Origin: Promethearchaeia archaeon
GTDB lineage: Archaea > Asgardarchaeota > Lokiarchaeia > Sigyniarchaeales > SOKP01
NCBI GenBank assembly: GCA_046497275.1
Contig: JAWOFX010000044.1
Coordinates: 4,774 to 36,773 of the forward strand
Reading direction: 5' to 3'
DNA: 32,000 nucleotides
Shown: piece by piece, positions 417-6,571 of the stretch
Numbering within the stretch: the stretch's first letter is position 1
Layout of the letters: each line of letters begins with the position of its first letter
The notes under the pieces: model-generated
What the model saw: only the letters and a program-made list of their open reading frames with translations
What the model was told of the DNA's origin: nothing
The model's database searches: none
Position numbers and translations under genes: made by a program

Positions 417-3266
417 TTAACTTGTAAATGTAGTCATCTTTCGCTTTATCCTGATCCTCCATTTTCGAATCTCATCTATAAGAAACACACTAAAAGCCCC
501 TAAGAGAAGAACAATCCAATATTCTAAGCGATAAAGGGGTACTACTTTAAAAGCTATTCCTAAGGGTGTATAGAGGATTAATAACTGTAGTCCTAAGGAG
601 AGTCCAGTTGCCCAGAAAAGATGTTTATTCGGAAATAACCAAAAGGGCTTGATATTTGAAGTACATGCGAATACAAACAATAATTCACATACTACTAAGT
701 TTGTAAATACTATTGTCTGTGCTAATGAGATCGCATATTCTCTTGCTGCCGTACCTGCAATCAAATAATTCATAGTTAAATTTGGATCAATTCCCGCTTG
801 AGCCCATGCTGGAATTAAAACTGACCATAACAAAAGATAAAGTGTTATATCGGTGATTGATGTATATATTCCAAGTAAAAGAACTGGGCCCTTAATTTCT
901 GTTATTAATGAAAAACCTTTTCGGGGCTCTTCTTTCATAACATCAGGGTCTGTAGGAGTCAAACCGAGCACCATTGCGGGAATACCGTCCGTTGCAATAT
1001 TCAACCATAATATTTGAACTGGTACGACGGGTAAAGCGATGAAGGTAAATGCGAAGAACTTCATTACGATATATGCCGTAAGAATTAAAAATATTTCATC
1101 GAAATTCGTACTTAACATATATCTGAAGAATCCTTTTGTCGTTTCAAATATTCCTCTTCCTTCTTCTATTGCATCTACTATTGTAGAATAATCATCATCA
1201 AGTAAAATCATATCAGACGCCTCTCGGGTCACTTCCGTTCCTTTTATTCCCATTGCTACACCAACATTTGCTCCCTTTACTGCTGGGGCATCGTTTACTC
1301 CATCACCCGTCATTGAGACTACTTTTCCTTCACCTTTTAATGCCTTAAGTATCCTTAATTTATGTTCAGAAGTCACACGAGCAAAAACATCTATATTTTC
1401 AATCCTTCGGAGTAGTTCATCATTAGACATTTCTTCTAATTCAGCACCAGTTATCGCTTCTTCATTATCTGTTAATCCAATCTCCTTTGCAATAGCTATA
1501 GCTGTAATTTTGTGATCTCCTGTAATCATAATAGTTCGAATACCAGCCATTCGTGCTTCTTTGATGGATTGTTTTACCTCATCTCTCGCGGGGTCAATTA
1601 TTCCTGCCAATCCGAGATATATAAAATCTTGTTCAACCTCTTCTTTGGAATATCCCTCTTCTAAAGGTTTATATGCTATTCCCAGTACTCGTAGAGCATC
1701 TTTGGCAAATTCTTCGTTTTTAGAAAGATATTTATCTTTAATCTTCTCTATTTGTTTAATTTCTCCGTTATAAAGCCCTTTTCCTGCTTTTTCTATAAGA
1801 ACATCCGGTGCTCCTTTGATTAAGGAAAATAATTCTCCATTCATTCTAACTACAACAGACATCATCTTTCTATCGGAATTAAAAGGGATTTCATCAACTT
1901 TTTCTACTTCAGAATCGATATCCATCTTTTTTGCTAGGACTTTCAAGGATATTTCTGTAGGATCTCCAATAACATCGGTCTTTTTGGAATTTTCGTTTTT
2001 AGGATTGACTGTAGAGTTATTACAATACAAGCATACTTCCAAATATCTTTTTAAATAATCATTTTCATCAATTAAGACTGGTTTTTCGGAATTATCCACA
2101 ATTTTCCCTTCCAGAGAATATCCAACGCCTTCTACATCATATACCTTCCCTCCGAGAAATACCTTTTTAACTGTCATTTCATTTTTCGTCAATGTTCCCG
2201 TTTTATCCGAACATATGATGTTAACTCTTCCTAACGTTTCAACAGCGGTTAAAGTTTTCACTAAAGCATTCCTCTCCGCCATTCTTCGCATCCCTATACT
2301 CATGACTACCGTAATTACAACTACAAGACCTTCTGGTACTGCCGATACCGCAAGACTAATTGCTATTTTAAAAGCTTCAATTATTGCATCAATTTCTTCT
2401 TGATTGAATTGAAGTCCCTCGTCTATTGTAATTAATATAAATTCTATAGCAAAAACGGCAAAACAAATAATTAGGATAATTATTCCTAACAATTTCCCAA
2501 AACTATCAACTTCCTTTTGAAAGGGACTTTTTTCATATTCTTCTTCTTGTATTTTTTCAGCTATTTTTCCTACTTCAGTTTTCATCCCAGTTCTTACTAC
2601 AATCGCAAGACCATTACCTCGTGTGATAACTGTGTTACTGTAGACCATATTTTTTCTATCTGCCAACATTGTTTTTTCGTCATATAATTTAAGATCTTTT
2701 TCAACTGGTTGGGATTCTCCTGTAAGAATTGCTTCATCAGCGTACAAGGAATAAGCTTTTATGAGTCTTCCATCTGCGGCAATTTTATCACCTTCATCTA
2801 ATTTAAGTATGTCCCCTGGGACGACTTCTTTTACTTCAATTTTTTTAACTTTTCCATTTCTAATAACTTTTGCATAATGAGGTGCCATTTCTTTTAGGCT
2901 TTCTAATGCTCTTTCTGCCTTATATTCTTGATAAAATCCTAATATAGCGTTTACGATAAGGATTACAAATATAACAATGGCATCCACAAATTCTGAAGGC
3001 TCTTCACCGGAGTAAATGGAATAAACCCCAATAATAATTGATATAACAATCGCAAAAAATAACAAATAGACCAAGAAATCTTTAAATTGACTAAGAAAAA
3101 TCTGCCAAGCTGAAATTCCTTTAGTTTTCTCAATTTCATTTGTACCGTATTTTTCAATTCGTTTTTTAGCTTCCTCTTCACTAAGACCATTCTTTGTCGA
3201 TGTATCTAATTCATCCGCTACTTTTTCAACTTTTAATGAATGTACGTTTAATTCTTCATTTTTCAT
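417..3266 (-). CDS. P-type ATPase, type IIA (SERCA/PMR1-like) Ca2+-transporting ATPase
   Basis: DKTGTLT phosphorylation motif, TGES, KGAPD, TGD, GDGVNDAPA. M4 PEGL, M5 STNFDE and M6 WLNIATDGIPA match the SERCA Ca2+ ligands N768/E771/N796/T799/D800. About 10 hydrophobic segments. Confidence 0.93.
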   Translation of the reverse strand: MKNEELNVHSLKVEKVADELDTSTKNGLSEEEAKKRIEKYGTNEIEKTKGISAWQIFLSQFKDFLVYLLFFAIVISIIIGVYSIYSGEEPSEFVDAIVIFVILIVNAILGFYQEYKAERALESLKEMAPHYAKVIRNGKVKKIEVKEVVPGDILKLDEGDKIAADGRLIKAYSLYADEAILTGESQPVEKDLKLYDEKTMLADRKNMVYSNTVITRGNGLAIVVRTGMKTEVGKIAEKIQEEEYEKSPFQKEVDSFGKLLGIIILIICFAVFAIEFILITIDEGLQFNQEEIDAIIEAFKIAISLAVSAVPEGLVVVITVVMSIGMRRMAERNALVKTLTAVETLGRVNIICSDKTGTLTKNEMTVKKVFLGGKVYDVEGVGYSLEGKIVDNSEKPVLIDENDYLKRYLEVCLYCNNSTVNPKNENSKKTDVIGDPTEISLKVLAKKMDIDSEVEKVDEIPFNSDRKMMSVVVRMNGELFSLIKGAPDVLIEKAGKGLYNGEIKQIEKIKDKYLSKNEEFAKDALRVLGIAYKPLEEGYSKEEVEQDFIYLGLAGIIDPARDEVKQSIKEARMAGIRTIMITGDHKITAIAIAKEIGLTDNEEAITGAELEEMSNDELLRRIENIDVFARVTSEHKLRILKALKGEGKVVSMTGDGVNDAPAVKGANVGVAMGIKGTEVTREASDMILLDDDYSTIVDAIEEGRGIFETTKGFFRYMLSTNFDEIFLILTAYIVMKFFAFTFIALPVVPVQILWLNIATDGIPAMVLGLTPTDPDVMKEEPRKGFSLITEIKGPVLLLGIYTSITDITLYLLLWSVLIPAWAQAGIDPNLTMNYLIAGTAAREYAISLAQTIVFTNLVVCELLFVFACTSNIKPFWLFPNKHLFWATGLSLGLQLLILYTPLGIAFKVVPLYRLEYWIVLLLGAFSVFLIDEIRKWRIRIKRKMTTFTS

Positions 3267-3554
3267 TTTTAGATCAAATTTTATGTAACATTTTTGTATT
3301 AGATATTAAAAATATATAAGTTAATACTTTAAATTTAATAAATCGATCTAATTCAAAATCTTCGTTTTTATGCTATTTATGAAGAAAGAGTTTATTCAAT
3401 AGATGTGAATTAATTGTTGATTTTGAAAATGCTTAACTCATTTTAGTTTAAGAATAGAACTTATTGAGTCATCCCAAAAAATTTTATGTTAAAAGTCTTA
3501 TTTAATATATAGAATAAAATAGAAACGACAATATAAACTCAAAAAAGGTGGTTT

Positions 3555-3935
3555 TTGTTTAGGGTTAAGATTACAAAAACAGCATTAAAATTCATTTATC
3601 GAGAACAAGAAAAAAAATATCCGGATAACAGCAATCGAAAACCGACAATTGCAGTATTTTATCATCAAAATTCAACGTGAACCACATTTTTCTGTGGTAA
3701 TATCGTCGAAGTGGTAGATAAAAATAAAATTCTGAACGATTCGCATCTTTTTATTCTCTGGGATGATGTGGAGGGAAATCCACCTATCGATATATTTATT
3801 GAAGATCAAGTAATGGATGAGATTGAACAAAAACCGGAATTACTAATTGATGCAGTTATAGGAGAAATAAAAGATAAAGAATATGGGATGCTGTTTATTA
3901 AAAAAGATTCAAATATATATATGGATAAAAAATGA
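3555..3935 (+). CDS. HesB-like selenoprotein 1, 126 aa, Sec at codon 42 (UGA 3678-3680), motif STUTTFFCG
   Basis: The frame of the ORF-track fragment 3711-3935 is open upstream to TTG 3555 except for one TGA. SD-like AAGGTGG at 3545-3551. N-terminus FRVKITKTALKFI resembles HesB-like starts. Paralog 2 has UGA at the same aligned position; a SECIS follows. Confidence 0.85.
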
Positions 3936-3968
3936 TCTGATCTTATAAAACCTCGAAGATTGGGGATT
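3931..3968 (+). promoter_or_regulatory. SECIS element 1 (eukaryote-like form: AUGA/GA core, 9-bp upper stem, A-rich loop)
   Basis: AUGA 3932-3935; arm UCUGAUCUU 3936-3944; loop AUAAAACCUCG 3945-3955; arm AAGAUUGGG 3956-3964; GA 3965-3966. All 9 stem positions pair (Watson-Crick or G-U). Confidence 0.85.
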
Positions 3969-3983
3969 GACGGTGCGTCCGTT
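3969..3983 (+). other. small hairpin GACGG-UGCGU-CCGUU immediately 3' of SECIS 1
   Basis: 5-bp stem; an equivalent hairpin with a UGCG-containing loop follows SECIS 2. Confidence 0.45.
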
Positions 3984-4151
3984 TATAGATTCCATATTAA
4001 TTATGTGCTATAAATTAAAAGACAAATATAGAATAGAATTAAAGTAACTTCTTCTATTAAAATTTTAAAATATAATCTGAATTTTTTATTCAGTTAATTA
4101 TTTAGATTATACTAAGAATATAATTAAGAAAAATAATAAGGTGTTCTTAGT

Positions 4152-4505
4152 ATTAAAATAACTCTTACAGAAGATGCTAAAGAAATAATTAAGGAACAGA
4201 GCAAAAAGATTCGTGAAAGAGAAAAAATACAAAACATAGTATTAGCGATTTATCAATACACGAGTGGATCTTGATCTGGATATTTTTGCATGGATCTTGT
4301 TCAAATGGCAGACAAACGAGACGTTGAAAAAAATAGGAACTTCAAATATATGACAAATAATAATGGAATTGAAATTTATATAGAAAAAGATACCCTAAGC
4401 ACTTTAAATTCAATTGAGGAACTAATAATCGATGGAAAAGGAATCGAAAGATATGGTCAAAAAACTGCTCGACTTACCTTAATTAAAAATTACTTAAAAA
4501 AATGA
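4152..4505 (+). CDS. HesB-like selenoprotein 2, ~117 aa, Sec at codon ~41 (UGA 4272-4274), motif GSUSGYFCM; start codon uncertain (ATT 4152)
   Basis: The frame of fragment 4290-4505 is open upstream from 4140 (in-frame TAA at 4137) except for one TGA. IKITLTEDAKEII is a typical HesB-like N-terminus. Aligns with selenoprotein 1 (LAIYQYTSGSUSGYFC vs IAVFYHQNSTUTTFFC; IEIYIEKD vs IDIFIEDQ; ELIID vs ELLID). SD-like AAGGTG at 4138-4143; a SECIS follows. Confidence 0.82.
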
Positions 4506-4538
4506 TCTAATCTTACAAATATTAGAAGATTAGTGATT
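4501..4538 (+). promoter_or_regulatory. SECIS element 2 (eukaryote-like form)
   Basis: AUGA 4502-4505; arm UCUAAUCUU 4506-4514; loop ACAAAUAUUAG 4515-4525; arm AAGAUUAGU 4526-4534; GA 4535-4536. Same geometry as SECIS 1, with pairing-preserving changes. Confidence 0.85.
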
Positions 4539-4541
4539 TTT

Positions 4542-4562
4542 CAGGTTGCGCCTGTTTTTTTT
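4542..4562 (+). terminator. hairpin CAGG-UUGCG-CCUG followed by an 8-T run; possible terminator or SECIS accessory hairpin
   Basis: 4-bp GC-rich stem 4542-4545/4551-4554 and T8 at 4555-4562, in front of the convergent aconitase gene. Confidence 0.4.
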
Positions 4563-4645
4563 AAATAAATGTGATTTATTCACATTCTTCTTTTATTTTT
4601 AATATAATATGAATATCGTAAAGAAGAAATGAAAAATAAACAATT

Positions 4646-6571
4646 TTATTTTTGTTTGTTTCTGATATATGGCAATTTTCCGCCAGCTCTTAAAATCTCA
4701 GTCATTCTATTACTTAAATTATGAATTACAGGTATTTCAGAATTTTGTGTGAGATTATGTACCATTAATTCTCTTTTCTCAAGAGATTCTAATTCAATTT
4801 CTATCTCATCGTCTTGATCAATAAGATCATAATCATTCAATCTCTGAAAAGTTAAAGGCACAATTCCGAAATTAACAAGATTATCTAAATGGATTCTTGC
4901 AAACGATTTGGCAATAATCGCTTTAATTCCCAAATATTTAGGAGCTATTGCAGCATGTTCTCGACTTGAACCTTGACCATAATTTTCTCCTCCTATAATA
5001 AATCCTCCATCACTTTCCAATGCTCTTTTTGAAAAGCTTGGGTCTATAGGATTGAAAACATATTGACTAATCTCGGGAATGTTACTTCTCAAAGGTAGAA
5101 TTTTTGCTCCCGCAGGCATTATATGATCCGTTGTAATATTATCTTCTACTTTAAGTAATACTTTTCCCTCCAATTTGGCAGCTAACGGAGGAAATTCCGG
5201 TAGAGATTTTATATTAGGCCCTCTGACAATTTGTACATCTTTGGCCTCCCTAGGAGGTAAAGGGGGGATGATCATATTATCATTCACAATGAATTTTTTA
5301 GACATTTGTATTTTAGGAAACTCACCAAATTTCCGAGGATCTGTTATTATTCCTTCGATTGCAGCCATTGCAGCAGTCTCAGGACTTACAAGATATACGC
5401 TAGCACTTTTCGTTCCAGATCTGCCAAGAAAATTTCTATTAAATGTCCTTAAAGACACAGCATCACTTTTAGGAGCTAATCCTTGACCAAGACATGGTCC
5501 ACAAGCATTTTCAAGGATCCTTGCTCCAGCTTCAATAAAATAGGCCATTTCTCCAGAACGAATCATATGGTTCACTACTTGACGAGATCCTGGAGAAATT
5601 GTAAGGACGGTATGTTGACTGATTGTTTTGTTTTTAAGCATATTAGCAGCAATTTTTAAGTCTCTTAGAGAAGAATTTGTACAACTGCCAATACAAACTT
5701 GATCAACATTCAATCCTTCAATTTCATGTATTGGTTTAACATTCCCAGGACTATGAGGTTCAGCTACTAGAGGTTCAAGTTCATCTAAATTAATTTCGAT
5801 AACATCATCATAGATAGCATCCTTATCCGGCTCTAATGAGGTCCACACTTCTTCTCTACTTTGTGCTTCTAAAAATACTCTTGTAATTTCATCCGATGGG
5901 AAAATTGAAGTTGTTGCTCCTGTTTCTGTTCCCATATTAGTGATTGTTGCTCTTTCTGGAACAGAAAGTGTACTAATACCCGGACCAGTATATTCTAATA
6001 TCTTATTTACCGCTCCTTTCACGCCTATTCTTCTTAAAACTTCTAAAATAATATCTTTTGCTGAAACAAATTCAGTCAATCTTCCAGTTAAACGTACATT
6101 AACAATTTCTGGCATTCTAAGATAGAAAGGCTCTCCTGCCATAGCAGCAGCAACATCTAACCCTCCTGATCCGATTGCAATCATTCCTATGCCTCCACAA
6201 GTGGATGTATGACTATCACTGCCTAATAAACTTTTTCCAGGAACAGAGAATCTTTCAAGATGGATTTGATGACATATTCCATTTCCTGGTCGAGAAAAGA
6301 ATAATCCATATTTAGCAGCAATATTCTGAAGATATCTATGATCATCTGCATTTCTAAAATCTGTTTGTAGGATATTATGATCCACATAACTTACGGATAA
6401 TTCCGTTTTTACTCGTGGTACGTCCATTTTTTCGAATTGAAGATATGTCAGCGTCCCTGTTGAATCTTGGGTAAGTGTTTGGTCCATTCTTATTCCAATC
6501 ATTTCACCCTTTTTGGATTCTCCATCGATGAGATGATCCTTTAAGAGCTTTTCCGCAAGTGTGTATCCCAT
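4646..6571 (-). CDS. acn: aconitate hydratase (short ~640-aa single-chain type)
   Basis: DHN, GSDSHT, GSCTN and CGPCLG 4Fe-4S ligands, plus a C-terminal swivel domain with TTDHI and NYGQGSSREHA. Confidence 0.88.
   Translation of the reverse strand: MGYTLAEKLLKDHLIDGESKKGEMIGIRMDQTLTQDSTGTLTYLQFEKMDVPRVKTELSVSYVDHNILQTDFRNADDHRYLQNIAAKYGLFFSRPGNGICHQIHLERFSVPGKSLLGSDSHTSTCGGIGMIAIGSGGLDVAAAMAGEPFYLRMPEIVNVRLTGRLTEFVSAKDIILEVLRRIGVKGAVNKILEYTGPGISTLSVPERATITNMGTETGATTSIFPSDEITRVFLEAQSREEVWTSLEPDKDAIYDDVIEINLDELEPLVAEPHSPGNVKPIHEIEGLNVDQVCIGSCTNSSLRDLKIAANMLKNKTISQHTVLTISPGSRQVVNHMIRSGEMAYFIEAGARILENACGPCLGQGLAPKSDAVSLRTFNRNFLGRSGTKSASVYLVSPETAAMAAIEGIITDPRKFGEFPKIQMSKKFIVNDNMIIPPLPPREAKDVQIVRGPNIKSLPEFPPLAAKLEGKVLLKVEDNITTDHIMPAGAKILPLRSNIPEISQYVFNPIDPSFSKRALESDGGFIIGGENYGQGSSREHAAIAPKYLGIKAIIAKSFARIHLDNLVNFGIVPLTFQRLNDYDLIDQDDEIEIELESLEKRELMVHNLTQNSEIPVIHNLSNRMTEILRAGGKLPYIRNKQK

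Follow-up and report, generated by a model that had tools for sequence, protein, structure and literature searches.

A tandem pair of predicted selenoproteins with an IscA-type fold and Loki-type SECIS elements in an Asgard archaeon

Positions 4152–4505 of the forward strand of the window (the whole stretch of 32,000 nucleotides of contig JAWOFX010000044.1 that was analysed) very probably represent, judging from comparative sequence data and with the explanation given here taken as a whole, a functional selenoprotein gene in the genome of an Asgard archaeon of the Loki type. The gene is split by gene finders at an in-frame UGA that is predicted to be read as selenocysteine (Sec), and it lies about 570 nt downstream of a diverged paralogue on the same strand. 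The host genome is 3.85 Mb long, has a G+C content of 30% and is 98.9% complete.

Results

Reading Frame and Tandem Paralogue

When TGA is read as U, no TAA or TAG is present between 4140 and 4505 on the forward strand, and the sole internal TGA is the one at 4272–4274, in the sequence YTSGS-U-SGYF-C-MDLV; the frame closes at the TGA 4503–4505. The first-pass annotation, which was made from the letters of the sequence, had described this frame as open apart from the one TGA with a Cys five residues after it, and the translation bears this out. Its further claim that a well-diverged pair of genes keeps the UGA column, the Cys and the SECIS element also holds good. The upstream gene (hereafter type 1), whose loop reads ST-U-TTFF-C, shares 25% identity with the flagged gene (type 2; BLASTP E 7e-11), U and C are aligned in register, and the hairpins after the two genes are nearly identical. 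The coordinates of these and the neighbouring features are collected in Table 1.

The type-1 consensus, AIF-x-x-S-x-x-U-T-x-x-F-C-G-N, describes the upstream gene and is the widespread form, and the group to which the flagged gene belongs has the consensus YQY-x-x-R-S-U-S-G-x-x-C. Type 1 is found without type 2 in many genomes and is therefore at least independent of it. The order of the cation ATPase, type 1, type 2 (where present) and aconitase is kept in more than 30 loci, all of them from one taxonomic family, and it may be an order inherited within that family. The pN/pS ratio between the host genome and its closest relative is 0.34 before the TGA and 0.31 after it (uncorrected values, with pS near saturation), so that both halves appear to be under equal purifying selection in one frame.

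Table 1. Features of the locus, in coordinates of the window
Feature	Position	Strand	Remarks
P2-type cation ATPase	417–3266	−	Divergent from the type-1 gene
Type-1 paralogue, CDS	3555–3932	+	126 codons from TTG 3555; Sec TGA 3678–3680; Cys TGT 3693–3695; stop TGA 3933–3935
Loki-type SECIS, type 1	3932–3966	+	AUGA 3932–3935; stem 3936–3944 with 3956–3964; loop 3945–3955; GA 3965–3966
Small hairpin after type-1 SECIS	3970–3982	+	
GGTG, Shine-Dalgarno-like motif	4140–4143	+	Putative role; in orthologues GGTG(A) precedes the coding region at a constant phase
Type-2 IscA-fold selenoprotein, CDS	4152–4502	+	117 codons; stop TGA 4503–4505; putative start; from orthologue alignment, pN/pS and AlphaFold2
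Sec codon, in-frame TGA	4272–4274	+	Residue 41 of 117; column kept in about 70 homologues, Cys at the same column in Cys forms
Invariant Cys codon TGC of U-x4-C	4287–4289	+	Five residues after Sec; one of four invariant columns in A3
Loki-type SECIS, type 2	4502–4536	+	AUGA 4502–4505; stem 4506–4514 with 4526–4534; loop 4515–4525; GA 4535–4536
Small G+C hairpin (4542–4554), then T8	4542–4562	+	Terminator-like or an extra arm of the SECIS region; position conserved in orthologues
Aconitase	4646–6571	−	After the type-1/type-2 pair

Orthologues and Natural Cysteine Forms

A six-frame search of about 40 relatives revealed homologues in about 16 of them, including 15 of the 24 genomes of the same family, and nearly all of these homologues contain exactly one TGA. 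The profile A3, which was built from an alignment of 20 sequences with both types taken together, matched 65 out of 400 genomes of the phylum (53 of the 134 belonging to the family of the host), and each of some 67 strong matches (E < 1e-23) contains exactly one in-frame TGA. The UGA falls at one column among the orthologues, with conservation on both sides of it, and no frameshifts or further stops were found in the aligned sequences. Only four columns of A3 are invariant, and two of these are Sec and the Cys at +5. It had been argued earlier that a random nonsense mutation would not explain such a pair, and this argument is strengthened by the retention of the TGA column in about 70 homologues and by the presence of a strict SECIS pattern on both stop codons.

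Cys occupies the UGA column in the type-3 paralogues, in the proteins P0023, P0025, P0035, P0040 and P0027 and, according to the hhalign alignment, in canonical IscA. The type-3 genes are situated between type 1 and type 2 in three genomes of a single genus (loci L040, L047 and L065 of G188, G184 and G189, respectively); they contain no TGA, the Sec column being occupied by Cys and position +5 by Leu. At the type-2 position of another locus (L079:4001–4381, protein P0027), between the same cation ATPase and aconitase, a four-Cys loop CxxC-x5-CxxC replaces U-x4-C and the gene has an ordinary ATG start; the type-1 gene next to it retains both its TGA and its hairpin. Downstream of the type-3 genes, of the gene in L064 and of that for P0027 neither a SECIS element nor a hairpin was found. 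The pattern among these sequences is consistent, in that the predicted Sec forms carry SECIS elements and the Cys forms do not. Some of the more distant Asgard homologues likewise have Sec in this loop, and they possess a C-terminal Cys as well as a SECIS element of their own.

Three other positional orthologues of the type-2 gene (P0034, P0052 and P0071) also possess a longer loop with four or more Cys residues in place of U-x4-C, and their genes have a normal ATG and neither TGA nor SECIS. The family has few members: a profile search of 1.84 billion representative sequences returned 72 clusters, all of them unnamed or annotated as hypothetical.

SECIS Elements and the 3′ Region

Both genes of the window use the UGA of the SECIS core itself as their stop codon; most orthologues stop at a TAA a few bases earlier, and in all 20 orthologues examined the element lies 0–46 nt past the stop. 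The type-2 element consists of a 9-bp stem and an A-rich 11-nt loop, ACAAAUAUUAG. As set out in the accessible portions of the paper by Mariotti et al. (PMC4989117), the AUGA...GA kink-turn core of a lokiSECIS carries a stem of 9 bp capped by a loop of 11 nt, with adenines on top, and the same portions describe an AUGA that doubles as a stop codon for VhuU.1. The elements studied here agree with this description in the AUGA/GA kink-turn core, in the length of the stem (9 bp) and in the 11-nt apical loop, which begins with adenines.

The core nucleotides G8, A9, G39 and A40 are invariant in 20 elements. In the alignment of these 20 sequences, 90% of the cells are paired and compensatory changes are found in seven of the nine stem pairs; the covariation score is 0.383, compared with 0.205 for shuffled alignments (none of 500 reaches the observed value) and at most 0.171 for slid registers, and RNAalifold recovers the identical stem unprompted. 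A strict SECIS pattern has only eight sites in both strands of the 3.85-Mb genome. Two of them fall exactly on the two stop codons, which is far beyond chance, and two further sites follow VhuD genes, each of which contains two Sec codons. A permissive Rfam scan of positions 3400–4700 yielded no SECIS family and one weak chance match of the first hairpin to a C/D-box snoRNA model; the Rfam SECIS models also miss Loki elements according to the accessible part of the text of Mariotti et al. (PMC4989117).

The cores, the stem, the loop and the place directly after the coding sequence are shared with the lokiSECIS, or Asgard type I eSECIS-like element, as presented in the accessible portions of PMC4989117 and PMC11227280. 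The difference is that the elements described here serve a protein family absent from the lists in those portions, and that nearly all copies are followed by a small G+C hairpin with a U-run, of which we found no description in the same portions of the two papers. Directly after the SECIS element of 20 orthologues (alignment A4) this hairpin is mostly of the form CGG...CCG and sometimes CTC...GAG. This hairpin could serve as a terminator or belong to the SECIS region as an additional arm. Variants of the core itself occur as well: ACGA stands in place of AUGA in the type-2 element of G002 (L008:1868–1913), and the type-1 element of L079 (3776–3830) has AA in place of the 3′ GA.

Selenocysteine Machinery

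The genome encodes Sec machinery, as judged from a tRNA-Sec gene and a SepSecS gene that adjoin each other. The tRNA-Sec scores 49.4 bits with the Rfam model and has the anticodon UCA in the anticodon loop CUUCAAA; 30 nt are inserted in the region of its T-arm, and ARAGORN made no call for this insertion-bearing tRNA-Sec. SepSecS was recognised with 381 bits (E 5e-114).

Two identical copies of the tRNA-Sec gene are present, both at contig ends (L001:11–129 and L002:63–181, on G000:C33 and C165), and the duplication may be an artefact of the assembly. Approximately 1.3 kb downstream of SepSecS, near the tRNA-Sec gene on the same contig, there is a Cys-form relative of the proteins considered here (L082:1489–1821, forward strand, equal to G000:C33:4765–5097); it has 110 residues, an EEGC loop and a C-terminal Cys, and scores 21.3 bits with NF041239. 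Its position could link the IscA-type fold to selenium metabolism, or could be a coincidence.

Start Codon and Leader

No ATG, GTG or TTG is present in frame between the stop at 4137–4139 and the UGA at 4272. The codon ATT 4152–4154 is located 8 nt after the GGTG motif and is aligned with the ATG of four orthologues and also with that of the L079 gene, in which the ATG follows GGTG by 7 nt. Because of this spacing and alignment, ATT 4152–4154 is taken as the likely start of the type-2 gene, with ATA 4158 as the alternative. The codon GTG 4141–4143 was considered as a leaderless start and rejected, being out of frame and followed by a stop six codons on.

Some type-1 orthologues present the same picture. 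In L018, L020, L021 and L008 there is no ATG, GTG or TTG between the GGTG(A) at its fixed phase and the conserved N-terminus, and the usual place of the TTG is occupied in such genes by CTG, TCG, TTT or AAT and in one of them by TAG. The missing canonical starts suggest either that the leader is very short or that initiation is non-canonical, at ATT or ATA.

Independent DNA and RNA-Library Contigs

A DNA run from another study (X2) covers positions 4118–4571 without one difference. RNA libraries from three further studies, all of them salt-lake metatranscriptomes, yielded contigs that cover 4141–4391 (X5), 4183–4552 and 4194–4552. The X2 and RNA-library contigs that run across 4272 have either no or one differing letter, and none is listed at the TGA; this agreement indicates that the TGA is no assembly error, a possibility the first-pass annotation had itself raised.

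The UGA and the SECIS element are found together on the RNA-library contigs, and the gene is in this sense expressed-looking, RNA libraries being able to hold DNA as well, so that contigs of this origin are no proof of transcription, of the strand or of the transcript ends. In two of the studies the contigs stop at 4552, inside the small hairpin, and continue into adapter sequence, which is a weak hint of a 3′ end. Positions 3300–3540, 4036–4117 and those beyond 4571 have no contig cover, and these gaps are not interpretable since the DNA run breaks there too. A piece from X6 with a 2-nt deletion at 3867 was set aside as coming from another organism, only 32 nt of it being matched.

Fold and Family Placement

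With the 20-sequence alignment as input, AlphaFold2 predicts a single domain whose strands come from both sides of the UGA (pLDDT 89.1, pTM 0.80). In a Foldseek search of the PDB with this model, ranks 1–9 are all of the IscA, SufA or HesB type, with probability 1.0 and TM scores of 0.42–0.63 (E 2.5e-5 for 1r94), and the two methods together place the predicted protein in the IscA fold. The A3 profile found nothing meaningful among PDB sequences, so that a fold search was needed to see the relationship.

In A-type carriers, the cluster ligands are one Cys in the GGCxGF loop and two in the C-terminal CGC. When A3 was aligned with canonical Asgard A-type carriers by hhalign, Sec fell, with weak support, on the Cys of GGC(A/S)GF (E 0.002, probability 13%). 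The predicted protein shares with the A-type Fe-S carriers IscA, SufA and ErpA (PF01521) the fold, with Sec in place of the first ligand Cys; it differs from them in that the C-terminal C-G-C pair is absent and the second Cys is located in the Sec loop instead. Of the three ligand cysteines, the first is replaced by Sec, and A3 has no conserved C-terminal Cys. The match to PF01521 (23.2 bits, E 8e-5) stays below the gathering score of 26.3, and the flagged gene is the only PF01521-like match in the genome.

The best-scoring named family is NF041239, the CC/Se motif family (Moor_selen_rel, predicted in Moorella thermoacetica), with 16.8 bits (E 0.005) against a cut-off of 40; four of the 20 members of the alignment match it weakly. 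Its proteins are likewise small and have Sec in the same loop, the difference being that here the Cys stands five residues after Sec and not adjacent to it. Distant Asgard homologues with the loop R-G-U-C-G score 37.5 and 31.4 bits with the same model. The CC/Se motif family is listed for bacteria in the table of a recent review (PMC13188914).

The HesB-like selenoprotein of Methanococcales and anaerobic bacteria (TIGR01911) is also small and has a HesB/IscA-related fold, and it is the only selenoprotein family of this fold listed for archaea (PMC13188914). It is distinguished by its UxGP motif, where the proteins studied here have U-S-G-Y (type 2) or U-T-x-x (type 1), and by the SECIS element, which here is of the Loki and not of the methanogen type. 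Against a TIGR01911 cut-off of 66.35, one of the 20 members matched with E 0.054 and nothing in the genome rose above 13 bits, the two tandem genes giving no match in this search. By the curated cut-offs the flagged gene lies outside TIGR01911, NF041239 and PF01521. It is therefore placed as a Lokiarchaeial branch of the IscA-fold superfamily that is linked via intermediates to the CC/Se family.

Discussion

The tandem pair of Sec-containing paralogues proposed in the first-pass annotation is corroborated along several lines, the orthologues, the Cys forms without SECIS, the covariation, the Sec machinery, the independent DNA and the RNA-library contigs all being in agreement. We propose that the mRNA would begin near 4141 and be translated from ATT 4152, with the SECIS element, located 229 nt downstream of the UGA at 4272–4274, recruiting the Sec-specific elongation machinery. 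The terminal UGA, lying inside the SECIS core, would be too close to it for recoding and would terminate translation. The predicted product is a single domain of 117 residues with the fold of the A-type carriers (IscA/SufA/HesB), in which Sec41, in the loop between strands 2 and 3, would replace the first cluster-ligand Cys of IscA and be followed by Cys46.

The Sec/Cys loop may serve to bind or to pass on a metal or an Fe-S cluster, for which two subunits would supply four ligands, two Sec and two Cys. We tentatively prefer this reading, because Sec stands at a ligand position, an orthologue has a four-Cys loop, no canonical A-type carrier was found in this genome and the gene adjoins that for aconitase, which is an Fe-S enzyme. 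In a sample of 81 genomes of the phylum, PF01521 is matched above its cut-off in three, all of one family, and in none of the nine sampled from the family of the host. A bolder version of the idea, which we consider rather unlikely, is that the Sec proteins took over the role of the A-type carriers, the cluster or metal being held by two selenolates and two thiolates; the subunits could then be type 1 and type 2 where both exist and a type-1 homodimer elsewhere. If this were true, it would provide a natural example of Fe-S or metal trafficking by a protein with selenium ligands, and the many orthologues without a canonical start would point to unconventional initiation on very short leaders.

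The same selenoprotein may, however, have a redox function, with U-x4-C forming a selenenyl-sulfide couple between Sec41 and Cys46 in a small oxidoreductase or in a selenium or persulfide relay built on the IscA scaffold. Sec and the Cys at +5 are both invariant, there is no C-terminal CxC of the kind required by A-type carriers to bind a cluster, and most of the uncharacterised prokaryotic selenoproteins bear Sec near Cys in redox-type motifs (PMC13188914). The Cys-form IscA-fold paralogue about 1.3 kb from SepSecS and tRNA-Sec would also fit such a role, and the CxxC pairs of the Cys-rich variant are classical redox motifs too, although four Cys residues arranged as CxxC-x5-CxxC are more usual in a metal site. 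On the other hand, the fold and the position of Sec match the cluster-ligand site, and the type-3 copy, where the Cys in the Sec column is followed by Leu at +5, would need no resolving partner. We regard a redox role as doubtful in itself and yet nearly as likely as the metal or Fe-S role.

The remaining alternatives concern the identity of the UGA. It might be decoded as something other than Sec, by read-through with Trp, Cys or Arg or through a local change of the code, the hairpin acting as a stimulator or as a terminator. Several database entries indeed show W at the UGA column; these are full-length entries whose most likely origin is gene calling with TGA set to Trp, to judge from their Logan and ENA sources. 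Among 1555 long open frames of the genome, 217 end in TGA, a number similar to that for TAG, and so the genetic code is not reassigned and TGA is an ordinary stop here. The hairpin has the published lokiSECIS shape, which also follows the two-Sec VhuD genes, the homologues that lack the TGA have Cys and not Trp at this column and are without the hairpin, and the genome possesses both tRNA-Sec and SepSecS. Against this background, decoding by anything other than Sec is very improbable.

Were the TGA to act as a genuine stop, the gene would be a pseudogene in decay or would fall into two separate small ORFs, one for a peptide of some 40 residues and the other for a protein of 71 residues that starts at ATG 4290. 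Translation table 11 does yield only the 71-residue frame 4290–4505, no canonical start precedes the TGA, and the databases contain many fragments of 40 and of 65–85 residues. Many of these fragments, however, start exactly behind the Sec column or stop immediately ahead of it, as expected from gene mis-calling. About 70 genes from many genera retain the TGA column, purifying selection is equal on either side of it, frameshifts and other stops are lacking, the predicted fold is one domain made from both halves, and the independent DNA has identical letters. A true stop accordingly has very little probability in our estimate. Least probable of all, to the point of being negligible, is an error of assembly or sequencing, for which nothing speaks except the general error rate of metagenome-assembled genomes, and against which stand the X2 DNA and the three RNA-library studies, covering 4272 with no difference listed at the TGA, and the orthologues of dozens of other genomes, which share the codon.

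Five families of Asgard selenoproteins are given in the accessible portions of Mariotti et al. 2016 (PMC4989117), and seven, drawn from more than 400 Asgard genomes, in those of Huang et al. 2024 (PMC11227280). Together with a review of 2026, the surveys as far as accessible count between five and eight families for the Asgard archaea and 11 for the archaea as a whole (PMC4989117, PMC11227280, PMC13188914). The review marks the HesB-like family as archaeal and does not have it among the families named for Asgard (PMC13188914). No selenoprotein with an IscA/HesB fold appears on the Asgard lists in the accessible text of these three sources, and a full-text literature search that combined selenoprotein, Asgard and IscA found no paper. 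The decoding mechanism, lokiSECIS, is a known one, and the protein family is absent from the published Asgard lists as far as these accessible portions extend.

The approximately 70 orthologues add a predicted selenoprotein family that gene callers have systematically missed. In its members Sec would occupy a ligand site within the fold of an Fe-S carrier, and the organisms that have them stand near the stem of the eukaryotes. The replacement of Sec by Cys, or of the Sec loop by a four-Cys loop, at one chromosomal position provides ready-made comparisons for experiments. At least 20 new Loki-type SECIS elements with clear covariation are also added, and the two in which the stop codon is part of the core may be useful for modelling the minimum recoding distance. 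Two more exact lokiSECIS shapes occur on the reverse strand, near 58512 of contig C100 and near 665 of contig C167, and a short frame upstream of the C100 element contains a TGA in the context GEPSG-U-AYIM.
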